From the IMG/VR virus record IMGVR_UViG_2713896780_000003: 4,944 nucleotides of DNA; one strand, 5' to 3'. Shown here in pieces: positions 846 to 3,449 of this stretch (the first letter of the stretch is position 1; each line of letters opens with the position of its first letter). The notes under the pieces are model-generated. The model saw only the letters and a list, made by a program, of their open reading frames with translations, did no database searches and had not been told where the DNA came from. This DNA is from a virus (Duplodnaviria; Heunggongvirae; Uroviricota; Caudoviricetes). Position numbers and translations under genes: made by a program.

Positions 846-1005
846 AATGACGCCCTCTGGTGGTTTCTAAACCATCACCACCGTCAGGTTCCTAATCATC
901 GGGTGGTGAGACGTACAGGGTTAGGAACTACCGGGAAACCAACCGGCGAGCTTTTCAGCTCCCCCATACGCCCCACCATAATTCAGATGTGCGCGTGCAT
1001 ACGAC

Positions 1006-1030
1006 AATAAAAAACACGCTCGCGGCGTGT
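1006..1030 (-). terminator. tR'-like intrinsic terminator downstream of the late promoter
   Basis: Minus-strand transcript reads ACACGC-CGCGA-GCGTGT followed by TTTTTATT: a 6-bp stem (plus 1014-1019 paired with 1025-1030), 5-nt loop, U-tract from plus 1006-1013. Confidence 0.5.
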
Positions 1031-1086
1031 GTCTGTCGCGGTCTCTATCCGGGGTTCCTAATCCCGACGCCAGATTTTGCTGGCGC
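1008..1086 (-). ncRNA. Predicted short leader transcript from the pR'-like promoter to the tR'-like terminator (about 80 nt, lambda 6S-RNA-like)
   Basis: Inferred from promoter and terminator positions. It begins with hairpin CGCCAG-CAAAAT-CTGGCG (plus 1068-1085) and ends at the terminator. Start site is estimated, not observed. Confidence 0.3.
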
Positions 1087-1092
1087 GTGAGG

Positions 1093-1122
1093 AATATAGC
1101 CCCGGATAACAGATTGAGTCAA
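1093..1122 (-). promoter_or_regulatory. Sigma70 promoter, pR'-like late promoter overlapping the stop codon of the Q-like gene
   Basis: Minus strand reads TTGACT (plus 1122..1117) then 18 bp then TATATT (plus 1098..1093). The -35 overlaps the TGA stop at 1121..1119. The spacer contains CCCCGGATA. Confidence 0.5.
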
Positions 1123-3051: not shown

Positions 3052-3162
3052 AGTGCGGGTGCGTTGAGGATGCCTGACACATCAGAGGTGGCGGGAGATT
3101 ACTCCCNNNNNNNNNNNNNNNNNNNNNNNNNNNNNNNNNNNNNNNNNNNNNNNNNNCTTCAT
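3050..3162 (-). CDS. Small ORF with strong start signals, interior masked by N-run; 3' end uncertain
   Basis: ATG at 3162..3160 (MK...) is preceded by AAGGAG 9 nt upstream. Past the N-run one frame stays open to TAA at 3052..3050, directly abutting the terminator; the frame implied by a literal 50-nt gap stops earlier, near 3082. Confidence 0.25.
3107..3156. other. Masked or unknown sequence (50 N)
   Basis: Run of N characters inside a small minus-strand ORF. Confidence 0.95.
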
Positions 3163-3214
3163 AGCCTGCTTCTCCTTGCCTTTCGGCACGTAAGAGGCTA
3201 ACCTACGTGTGTAG

Positions 3215-3244
3215 AGCATAGATATGGCCTCAGATTAATGTTAA
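3215..3244 (-). promoter_or_regulatory. Candidate sigma70 promoter with operator-like repeats for the small ORF at 3162
   Basis: Minus strand reads TTAACA (plus 3244..3239) then 18 bp then TATGCT (plus 3220..3215). The -35 lies within one of two TAATGTTAA direct repeats (plus 3236-3244 and 3262-3270) that flank the imperfect palindrome GCGTCTTGCCGGACGC. Confidence 0.3.
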
Positions 3245-3356
3245 GCGTCTTGCCGGACGCGTAATGTTAACTGGGGCTTTTCTCTGTCTGCCTTACGGTG
3301 GCATGCCCGAGGCAGATAGCCTCAAGCACCCGCAGCAATTCTACTTAACTCTCGCT

Positions 3357-3449
3357 TTACCGCANNNNNNNNNNNNNNNNNNNNNNNNNNNNNNNNNNNN
3401 NNNNNNNNNNNNNNGCACCTTCCATTGCCAGTGAAATATCATCCGACAT
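3357..3449 (-). CDS. Small protein (about 30 aa if the gap is literal), interior masked by N-run
   Basis: ATG at 3449..3447 with AAGGAGG 4 nt upstream, reading MSDDISLAMEGA before the N-run. All three frames stop within 42 nt after the gap; the frame consistent with a 50-nt gap ends with TAA at 3359..3357. Confidence 0.35.
   Translation of the reverse strand: MSDDISLAMEGXXXXXXXXXXXXXXXXXXR
3365..3414. other. Masked or unknown sequence (50 N)
   Basis: Run of N characters inside a small minus-strand ORF. Confidence 0.95.

Follow-up and report, generated by a model that had tools for sequence, protein, structure and literature searches.

A probable P1 immI-type antisense-RNA switch over an ORF6N antirepressor-like gene in a lambdoid prophage of Escherichia coli

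The c4 RNA of bacteriophage P1 is excised from its operon transcript, with RNase P acting at the 5' end, and a translational block of the small gene icd leads to Rho-dependent polarity on ant. Within the immI region of P1 and P7, the order of parts is promoter, a1-b1, terminator-like hairpin, c4, a2 and then b2 at a ribosome-binding site, and bipartite recognition sets immunity specificity. In P1, a plasmid prophage, b2 covers the ribosome-binding site of icd, through which ant is regulated indirectly, and a second promoter further upstream, P51a, is controlled by C1. That a1b1 and a2b2 compete was proposed for P1 by Citron & Schuster (cited in Additional file 1 of Weinberg et al. 2010, which also notes an optional 'third stem' of the c4-a1b1 motif).

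The other closely comparable system is the isrK-orf45/STnc1160-anrP locus of Gifsy-1 in Salmonella (Hershko-Shalev et al. 2016, PMC4825925), where the promoter PisrK drives IsrK and anrP, and STnc1160 is likewise dependent on PisrK. Mutations G28A and G31A in the a1 core and C159U and C162U in the a' core derepressed, while double mutants restored repression only partly; IsrK supplied in trans raised anrP translation more than 100-fold, which a1 mutants were unable to do, and co-expression of STnc1160 increased rather than relieved the effect of IsrK (PMC4825925). Promoter dependence, a1:a' pairing and trans activation by the leader RNA are established in Gifsy-1, the only system for which Hfq binding and trans activation of the downstream gene by IsrK are known (PMC4825925). 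The authors accounted for their data by alternative mRNA structures together with translational coupling via orf45, an account deploying neither a2/b2 nor the P1 c4 analogy, and described IsrK as a structural homologue of seqA of P4; the product of anrP triggers antQ expression and prophage induction (PMC4825925).

The window analysed here, a stretch of 4,944 nucleotides, belongs to a lambdoid prophage of E. coli, and every feature of the cassette described below lies on its minus strand. Matches exceeding the relevant gathering scores were obtained with three Rfam families (isrK at 1009-1086, c4-a1b1 at 1046-1099 and C4 antisense RNA at 899-983), the latter two being the families to which the P1/P7 RNAs belong. 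Nucleotide identity to Gifsy-1 isrK-orf45-anrP is 81% across the whole intergenic region, and the layout agrees position for position with the annotated a1/b1-c4-a2/b2 of P1. We consider it about 85% probable that the locus is a P1 immI-type antisense-RNA switch over an ORF6N antirepressor-like gene, of the type represented by the Gifsy-1 locus. The regulatory element is genuine, but its type has been described before: known families suffice and a new mechanism is unnecessary.

The original prediction drew attention to an 11-base motif, GGTTCCTAATC, at 887-897 and 1053-1063, to an inverted partial copy, TTAGGAAC, at 921-928, and to TATCCGGGG at 1046-1054 as the reverse complement of 1100-1108; all of these were confirmed, the 11-base copies being exact. 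In the repeated motif we recognise the two targets of a P1-type C4 antisense RNA, and in its inverted copy the recognition sequence of that RNA; the 9-bp inverted repeat represents an RNA helix, so that the accompanying suggestion of an RNA-level structure proved right for both. A degenerate third copy at 862-872, returned by a repeat finder, was rejected as an instance of the same element and corresponds to the separate b2 site. A tRNA or tmRNA reading of the motif, which resembles a T-loop, was also dismissed, ARAGORN having found neither.

The cassette begins with a sigma-70 promoter (1093-1122) whose location had been predicted correctly: a promoter scan returned 10 of 12 consensus matches on the minus strand, with -35 TTGACT at 1122-1117 and -10 TATATT at 1098-1093 separated by an 18-nt spacer. 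It aligns with the promoters of both reference systems, as the counterpart of PisrK in Gifsy-1 and of P1c4/P51b in P1. The Q-like gene upstream terminates within the -35 element (stop codon 1121-1119), just as the Gifsy-1 locus directly follows a Q-type gene with its stop codon in the -35. The RNA at 1009-1086 matched the full isrK model (RF01394, positions 1-77) with 69.4 bits (gathering score 50), and its predicted fold comprises hairpin 1 (1086-1067), hairpin 2 with a1, then b1 and an intrinsic terminator (1009-1030), the last consisting of a stem at 1030-1014 followed by a U run and supported by both the terminator scan and the fold. Scans and fold combined thereby gave the features expected of IsrK, namely an RNA of ~77 nt with two 5' hairpins, a Rho-independent terminator and its own promoter, while the c4-a1b1 match scored 47.8 bits against a gathering score of 46.7. 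The a1 target (AUUAGGAACC, 1053-1062; the motif copy at 1053-1063) lies in the hairpin 2 loop, and its complementarity to a' (-10.1 kcal/mol) is accompanied by covariation between the two; it is homologous to G28-G31 of Gifsy-1 IsrK, the partner of which is C159-C162 (positions indexed on the compared sequences), and the a1:a' pairing hence fits the positions mutated in that prophage. The core of the b1 target (GAGACC, 1040-1045), which pairs with the b' loop through one G·U, immediately adjoins the foot of the extended terminator stem, as it does in all modules.

The C4 homologue (899-983), which matches STnc1160/'orf45' of Gifsy-1, scored 67.0 bits over the full RF01695 model (1-87; gathering score 45, E=6e-12), and, on the P1 analogy, a mature span of ~977-902 (~76 nt) would be predicted. 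Its consensus fold is a long outer stem around two hairpins, with a fold z-score of -3.4; among 31 relatives, 11 of the 27 pairs exhibited compensatory changes. The unpaired, variable parts of this structure are the recognition loop b' (UUGGUUUC, 935-942) in hairpin 2 and the single-stranded recognition stretch a' (AGUUCCUAAC, 920-929), the latter corresponding to the inverted copy at 921-928. Both are complementary to sites downstream of C4, as in P1, where the second pair, a1/b1, is likewise upstream of C4 on the same transcript. The a2 target (AUUAGGAACC, 887-896; a':a2 -10.1 kcal/mol), identical to a1 and corresponding to the motif copy at 887-897, lies just 3' of C4 in the loop of a hairpin (875-909) formed by the pairing of UCACCACC (909-902) with GGUGGUGA (882-875), which is evident as an inverted repeat, present in the fold and conserved in relatives. 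Since UCACCACC also supplies the 3' strand to the outer stem of C4, this hairpin is, on the modelled folds, an alternative to the C4 structure in unprocessed RNA. The b2 target (AGAAACCAC, 860-868; b':b2 -8.1 kcal/mol) ends 1 nt before the Shine-Dalgarno sequence AGAGGG (858-853) of the ORF6N gene, which starts at the AUG at 845-843 (ribosome-binding region 843-858). In nearly all modules b2 abuts or runs into the Shine-Dalgarno sequence; here it abuts without covering it.

Covariation was assessed in 121 parsed related modules, which comprised 10 types of a' and 39 types of b' loop. The longest exact complement served as the score, replacing a duplex-energy ranking which was uninformative for b' loops because the longer ones obtained favourable energies whatever the target. 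Among cognate combinations, 96% (a) and 93% (b) of target regions contained an exact complement of 6 nt or more, by contrast with 7% and 9% for non-cognate combinations; each a or b type matches its own two targets, which constitutes a three-way covariation. Relative to the GUUCCAAC type, the a type of the window contains one extra nucleotide, an insertion shared by a1, a' and a2. It was also apparent that the extended flank consensus CCGGnnGTTCCTAAnCC put forward in the original prediction has no support in the relatives, where complementarity to the recognition stretch rather than the flanks is conserved. Nor is there any need for the second protein regulator that had been proposed to bind the repeats, the three copies covarying as base-pairing partners down to the shared insertion.

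The gene downstream of b2 (217-845) encodes an ORF6N-domain homologue of AnrP (Pfam ORF6N, E=4e-19; RefSeq annotation), judged from its sequence to be antirepressor-like; a run of N at 767-816 within it represents only 3 nt in identical genomes. Genes downstream of such modules are always of antirepressor type (ORF6N, Rha, Bro-N, or Icd-like as in P1). Icd-like genes are present in some other modules, but none was found here between C4 and the antirepressor gene, the ORF6N AUG (845) directly following b2 with no intervening ORF; the P1 route through icd and Rho-dependent polarity therefore cannot apply as such, and b2 abuts the antirepressor's own Shine-Dalgarno sequence instead. Upstream of the cassette lies the gene of a DUF1133 Q-like protein (1119-1673) with a weak Phage_antitermQ match. 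Q21- and Q82-type proteins are mutually unrelated, and DUF1133 is weakly Q21-like. In phages devoid of the cassette, DUF1133 genes are directly followed by a conserved non-coding block which is found here at 146-208, downstream of the ORF6N gene, and which is followed by a hairpin and U7 at ~120-97; this block is a candidate native late promoter and leader. The position of this block implies that the promoter at 1093-1122 belongs to an inserted cassette, and it is very likely that the cassette carrying the switch was inserted between the Q-like gene and the block normally adjacent to that gene.

Although the order of promoter, IsrK-type leader and terminator, C4-type RNA and ORF6N antirepressor gene is common to this locus and Gifsy-1, the two differ in specificity (a, UUAGGAAC here versus GGCGUC; b, UGGUUU here versus GGUGAU), in the gene upstream (DUF1133 here versus Q82-type) and in the length of the 'orf45' frame (27 codons here versus 45).

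The 9-bp inverted repeat represents the third stem that Weinberg et al. described as optional, with 1108-1100 pairing with 1054-1046. Its 5' arm (UAUCCGGGG, 1100-1108) falls within the spacer of the promoter, ahead of the transcription start, and its 3' arm (CCCCGGAUA, 1046-1054) overlaps the 3' strand of hairpin 2 plus the last two a1 bases; the equivalent stem of P1/P7 similarly joins the P51b spacer and the a1 flank. As the 5' arm precedes the transcription start, the stem can form only in RNA begun upstream of the cassette promoter. Since the register of the helix shifts by 2 nt between sequence forms, the controls consisted of shuffles, neighbouring windows and cross-class comparisons rather than a single-structure alignment. 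The mean duplex energy with the cognate spacer window was -13.9 kcal/mol, compared with -6.4 kcal/mol for the next 30 nt upstream, and z was below -2 in 84% of 88 distinct promoter/leader combinations. The stem occurs in several sequence forms, a compensatory U-A to C-G change included, and its interior non-Watson-Crick positions comprise 52 G·U against 1 A·C, a ratio to be expected of sense-strand RNA and not of a DNA site. The fold z-score was -5.9 for the 5'-extended leader and -1.8 for the short one, and a1 is predicted to become harder to open, at a cost that rises from 3.1 to 10.7 kcal/mol for this locus and from a mean of 4.9 to 9.7 kcal/mol in 95 modules. The stem is missing from several promoter classes, and it is consequently not essential to the system; Gifsy-1 lacks its outer extension (1127-1120 with 1038-1031), for which no conservation is claimed.

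These results bear directly on other possible explanations of the repeats. That they are functionless chance matches is scarcely credible, the short length of the repeats being all that speaks for it: the window contains two 11-mers with at most one mismatch where 0.07 were expected, and two 9-mers, counted over both strands, where 0.01 were expected, counts reached by none of 200 shuffles in either case (at least two matches being required for the 11-mer), and comparison across related prophages, the check proposed together with the original prediction, found the repeats conserved and covarying in 121 modules. A more specific proposal took the promoter for the late promoter pR', with the spacer 9-mer as its Q-binding element and the 11-mers as DNA sites recognised by Q or by a second protein regulator. 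The locus does have the appearance of a canonical Q cassette (bioRxiv 10.1101/651190), in that a Q-like gene is followed by a promoter, a -10-like element at ~+8 to +13 and a terminator ~70 nt downstream. However, the same spacer element follows DUF1133, Q82-type (PF06323) and Q21-type (PF06530) genes and is also present after non-Q genes (Dam methylase, integrase), while P1, which lacks Q, has a different sequence at this position that is again complementary to its own leader; sequence comparison therefore did not identify at 1100-1108 the Q-family-specific DNA element that marks a lambdoid Q-binding site at a promoter following a Q gene. The preponderance of G·U in the helix points to RNA, the 11-mers covary with an RNA recognition stretch, shared indel included, and the block associated with DUF1133 genes occupies 146-208 rather than 1093-1122. 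A Q-binding role is accordingly very improbable, and on the sequence comparisons the promoter at 1093-1122 is probably not pR'.

The published Gifsy-1 model is a more substantial competitor, envisaging that a cis helix between the leader motif and its inverted copy silences the long transcript, that the short leader opens this helix in trans, and that translation of a small ORF across the C4 region couples ribosomes into the antirepressor gene, with no repressor role for a2 or C4. It is founded on direct experiments in a locus 81% identical to this one (PMC4825925), and minimum-energy prediction for the full transcript of the present locus yields the cis a1:a'/b1:b' helix (z = -4.0). Nevertheless, the small ORF ranges from 8 to more than 72 codons in the 121 modules, a variability which rules it out as a conserved peptide; in the window it comprises 27 codons, and its end at 898-896 is separated from the antirepressor AUG by 50 nt. 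The model also offers no reason for covariation of a2/b2 with a'/b' in a region that evolves as structured RNA, while the partial restoration recorded in double mutants is what a requirement for a' to pair additionally with the unmutated a2 would produce; as a full account of the locus it is considered unlikely. A similarly low likelihood attaches to control of the P4 type, whether additional or alternative, whereby C4 paired to a1/b1 of the nascent RNA would alter terminator efficiency and so feed back on transcription of C4 and the antirepressor gene. The position of b1 against the extended terminator stem in all modules is in keeping with such control, as is the fact that P4 CI RNA acts in this way via seqA/seqC, and the possibility was raised by the Gifsy-1 authors (PMC4825925). 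By way of contrast, it leaves the position of b2 at the ribosome-binding site unexplained, and IsrK in trans increased transcription 8-fold in Gifsy-1 when translation rose 139-fold (PMC4825925).

With the P1-type switch as the preferred reading, the constitutive promoter at 1122-1093 would initiate transcription near 1086, and the terminator (~1009) would stop most transcripts to yield an IsrK-like leader of ~78 nt with a1 in a hairpin loop and b1 just behind it. Read-through RNA would carry C4 (~977-902), then a2 and b2, and then the antirepressor gene. By analogy with P1, we infer that C4, folded as a tRNA-like stem with two hairpins, would be excised from this transcript, whereupon a' (929-920) and b' (942-935) would pair with a2 (896-887) and b2 (868-860) in a duplex abutting the Shine-Dalgarno sequence, thereby occluding the ribosome-binding site directly, blocking antirepressor translation and keeping the prophage quiet. 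The a1/b1 pair would compete for the same C4 stretches, whether in cis, within RNA not yet processed, or in trans, in the form of the short leader, and may thus serve as an anti-antisense decoy able to switch the antirepressor on; the a and b sequences would set specificity, precluding cross-talk between modules of different prophages. Two considerations qualify the decoy: copies of a1b1 always outnumber those of C4, and an unqualified sponge model hence needs differences in affinity or stability; and derepression by a cis mutation of a1 in Gifsy-1 is not predicted by a pure decoy model.

Other phage systems share some of these properties. The CI RNA of P4 is, as proposed for C4, a processed small RNA that pairs with one upstream and one downstream site (seqA/seqC) on the same transcript, but it brings about premature transcription termination through a single recognition sequence, seqB, whereas recognition here is bipartite with the downstream site at the ribosome-binding site; C4, not CI, was the best covariance-model match of the window's RNA. 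The sar/ant pair of P22 also involves a small antisense RNA that blocks antirepressor translation (2025 review of phage-derived sRNAs), but sar is an unrelated RNA, a true cis-antisense transcribed from the opposite strand without a decoy site. The pR'-QBE-tR' region of lambda resembles the cassette in directly following a Q-type gene and in having a promoter succeeded by a short terminated leader RNA; it differs in that the conserved spacer element here is an RNA helix arm with no sign of Q action, and in that the block specific to this Q-like family lies ~900 nt further downstream.

A further proposal, which we advance tentatively, is that the third stem conditions the decoy on the site of transcription initiation, jointly with a re-reading of Gifsy-1 in which IsrK is the decoy and STnc1160 is C4. 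RNA from the cassette's own promoter would lack the 5' arm and leave a1 open, making an anti-antisense role possible, whereas RNA reading in from the upstream Q-like gene, which here would take the place of the P51a transcript of P1, would carry the arm and form the third stem, predicted to close off a1. The literature searched contained no mention of the location of the third stem inside the promoter spacer or of its consequence. If the proposal is correct, heavy early or lytic transcription would supply C4 without the decoy; in Gifsy-1, IsrK would be the a1b1 decoy and 'orf45'/STnc1160 would be C4, with repression exerted directly at a2/b2 on the antirepressor ribosome-binding site; and two systems listed as separate entries in the 2025 review of phage-derived sRNAs would be unified. 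The comparative data also invite a re-examination of the published Gifsy-1 model with P1 in mind.

Such modules are common: 774 of 5426 complete E. coli genomes carry the module, as do 248 phage records, of which many are from Stx phages. The numerous a/b specificity types constitute a catalogue of RNA-based immunity classes which could predict cross-talk between prophages, and the element would decide antirepressor production and, through it, induction of its own and of co-resident prophages in EHEC-type E. coli, some of the latter carrying Shiga toxin genes.

The three adjacent minus-strand matches returned by an Rfam scan, each above its curated gathering score, were isrK (1009-1086; 69.4 bits, gathering 50), c4-a1b1 (1046-1099; 47.8 bits, gathering 46.7) and the C4 antisense RNA (899-983; 67.0 bits, gathering 45). 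The element belongs to known families, namely the P1-type C4 control of an antirepressor and the Gifsy-1 IsrK type of locus. The window represents part of a lambdoid prophage with every gene on the minus strand, and 830-1130 matches E. coli O145 RM9872 and other EHEC chromosomes at 100% identity. The flanking genes are annotated by RefSeq as encoding a DUF1133 protein on the upstream side and an ORF6N-domain protein on the downstream side. The listed sequence features of the original prediction were all located where it had placed them, including the promoter-like site (-35, 1122-1117; -10, 1098-1093) and the terminator (1030-1014). Two occurrences of the repeated 11-mer were counted (expected 0.07), and two of the 9-mer plus its complement (expected 0.01); in neither case did any of 200 shuffles reach the count.

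In the nomenclature of P1, the two motif copies are the target sites a1 (1062-1053), displayed in the loop of leader hairpin 2, and a2 (896-887), immediately 3' of C4, and the inverted copy is a' (929-920), a single-stranded stretch of C4. A second trio, additional to those features, completes the system: b' (942-935) in the loop of C4 hairpin 2, b1 (1045-1040), and b2 (868-860), which ends one base before the Shine-Dalgarno sequence AGAGGG (858-853) of the ORF6N gene (AUG, 845-843). A degenerate 'third copy' of the motif reported by a repeat finder at 862-872 was rejected, being the b2 site. The order of parts is that annotated in immI of phage P1, namely the promoter P1c4 (formerly P51b), a1, b1, a terminator-like hairpin, c4, a2 and b2, with b2 lying where ribosomes bind for the gene that follows; however, P1 has icd and the window has no icd gene. 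The region of Gifsy-1 from antQ (Q-type) to STM2616/anrP (antirepressor-like) is 81% identical over the ~300 nt; it constitutes the isrK-orf45-anrP locus on which Hershko-Shalev et al. worked (PMC4825925).

The 50-N runs at 767-816, 3107-3156 and 3364-3414 are placeholders of unequal real length, the first standing for 3 nt and the second for 162 nt, so that frames and distances across them differ from window coordinates; the ORF6N gene, for example, looks frame-shifted in the window. A hok/sok-type toxin-antitoxin locus (Rfam sok, 112.6 bits) occupies 3157-3331 (minus) together with the run at 3107-3156; the Hok coding sequence itself falls within this run, whose 162 nt are those of the identical genome.

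Comparison across related loci was based on 80 loci encoding ORF6N relatives and 120 stretches with a degenerate C4 core pattern, which with P1 and Gifsy-1 yielded 127 distinct promoter/leader/C4/target-site modules. Among the 121 that could be parsed, 10 distinct a' sequences and 39 distinct b' loops were seen, and the target sites covaried module by module, a1/a2 with their own a' and b1/b2 with their own b'. Cognate target regions held an uninterrupted perfect complement of 6 nt or more in 96% (a) and 93% (b) of cases, as against 7% and 9% for non-cognate pairs. Relative to the GUUCCAAC type, the a' type of the window, UUCCUAAC, has a single-base insertion that a1, a' and a2 all share, and b2 runs into the Shine-Dalgarno sequence in nearly all modules. 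As judged from sequence comparison, the C4 region is evolving as a structured RNA: its consensus fold contains 27 pairs, 11 with compensatory changes, and leaves the variable a' and b' unpaired. There is strong comparative evidence that the element is functional. Downstream of the modules lie genes of ORF6N, Rha, Bro-N or Icd-like type. The counterpart of the Gifsy-1 orf45 frame (896-979, minus; 27 codons, its UGA at 898-896 overlapping the first bases of a2) is not conserved, ranging from 8 to >72 codons; in 30/121 modules it is stopless within the ~220 nt examined and enters the antirepressor coding region. Two contigs carry two modules apiece; the pair on L116 differs in b', and that on L147 in a' as well as b', a pattern consistent with co-resident modules avoiding cross-talk. 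At two loci (L064, L066) an apparent second, divergent tandem module, comprising a promoter, hairpin GGTGCTCAAAACACC, terminator and C4-like start TTTATGACCGGGCGTG, replaces the ORF6N gene ~90-220 nt after the C4 start.

With Gifsy-1 transcript numbering set from the published first-AUG position (A107), G28A and G31A mapped to the a1 core (GGCGUC), C159U and C162U to the a' core (ACGCCAAC), and the indexed pairings G28-C162 and G31-C159 were those reported (PMC4825925). Since the mutated positions lie in the a1 and a' cores, the helix of motif and inverted copy is the counterpart of the genetically probed Gifsy-1 helix.

The best-supported account, by analogy, is that of P1 adapted to the present layout. 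Read-through transcripts from the cassette's own promoter would yield C4, whose a' and b' would pair with a2 and b2 and block initiation at the antirepressor ribosome-binding site, while a1/b1 would compete for C4, either in cis within the unprocessed transcript, of which the cis a1/b1:C4 helix is the predicted minimum-energy fold, or, as the terminated leader RNA, in trans. That a1b1 competes with a2b2 had already been suggested for P1, an idea that Weinberg et al. 2010 cite in Additional file 1; C4 processing and a decoy role are likewise proposed here. Direct occlusion of the ribosome-binding site is also no more than a proposal, since b2 adjoins the Shine-Dalgarno sequence rather than covering it. 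As icd is absent, the Rho-polarity route of P1 is inapplicable. Supplying the short leader RNA in trans raised anrP translation >100-fold in Gifsy-1 and a1 mutants gave no such activation, but a1 mutations also derepress in cis and co-expression of STnc1160 enhanced the IsrK effect (PMC4825925), two observations that do not fit a simple decoy model.

The 9-bp inverted repeat constitutes a third stem, its arms lying at 1108-1100, between -35 and -10, and at 1054-1046, which takes in the 3' side of the a1 hairpin and a further five bases. The 5' arm is in the promoter spacer, upstream of the transcription start (about 1086, by homology with nt 1 of IsrK), so the helix is possible only in RNA started upstream: from P51a in P1, but from the Q-like gene (DUF1133, 1119-1673) in the window, where no terminator intervenes before the cassette promoter. 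Of 88 distinct promoter/leader combinations, 84% kept the complementarity (z < -2 relative to shuffled promoter windows), and duplex energy averaged -13.9 kcal/mol, compared with -6.4 for the adjacent 30 nt. Several sequence forms occupy the same place, including UAUCCGGGG / CCCCGGAUA in the window, UUCAGGCU / AGCCUGAA in P1 and AAUU(U/C)CGGGACG / CGUCCUG(A/G)AAUU in another class, the last with compensation of U-A by C-G. Interior non-Watson-Crick positions comprised 52 G·U against 1 A·C, the mark of a sense-strand RNA helix. Leader folding relative to shuffles gave z = -5.9 for the 5'-extended RNA versus -1.8 for the short one, and the predicted cost of opening a1 rose from 3.1 to 10.7 kcal/mol (4.9 to 9.7 as the mean of 95 modules), remaining unchanged in a class without the third stem. 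The window lineage additionally has an outer helix, GUCUGUUG:CGACAGAC (1120-1127 with 1031-1038), bringing the -35 region against the terminator base in read-in RNA; the corresponding Gifsy-1 sequences lack complementarity. The loop of leader hairpin 1 (1074-1079; ~+8 to +13) is -10-like in every module class (CAAAAU in the window, CAAAUU in P1, UAUAAA or CAUAAA elsewhere), and could function in sigma-dependent pausing or in some other conserved way.

The spacer copy had been put forward as a Q-binding element, a proposal that is not supported, because the same spacer core, YCGGGG, lies behind different Q families and non-Q genes: it is identical whether the upstream gene encodes DUF1133, Q82-type (PF06323) or Q21-type (PF06530) proteins, a Dam methylase or an integrase. 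Q21- and Q82-type proteins share no sequence relationship, and the match of DUF1133 to the Q21-type model is weak. The TGA stop of the Q-like gene (1121-1119) is embedded in the -35 hexamer TTGACT (1117-1122), as in Gifsy-1 with its unrelated Q82-type gene. More direct evidence came from 80 loci encoding relatives of the DUF1133 protein: the cassette was present at all 30 matching full length (30/30); the 50 phage loci matching residues 1-176/177 only were all cassette-free, with a conserved ~63-nt non-coding block directly 3', followed by a terminator. In the window this block (208-146) immediately follows the ORF6N stop codon and precedes a hairpin plus U7 (~120-97), which indicates that the C4/ORF6N unit is an inserted cassette separating the Q-like gene from the block that normally accompanies it. 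The Q-responsive late promoter region is more plausibly placed in this block, which with its hairpin is a candidate native late promoter, leader and terminator, although the Q-like protein may also act at 1093-1122.

Little in the element is new, the third stem itself having been recorded by Weinberg et al. in 2010; the remaining interest lies in promoter-dependent masking of a1 and in reconciling the Gifsy-1 model with the P1 model.
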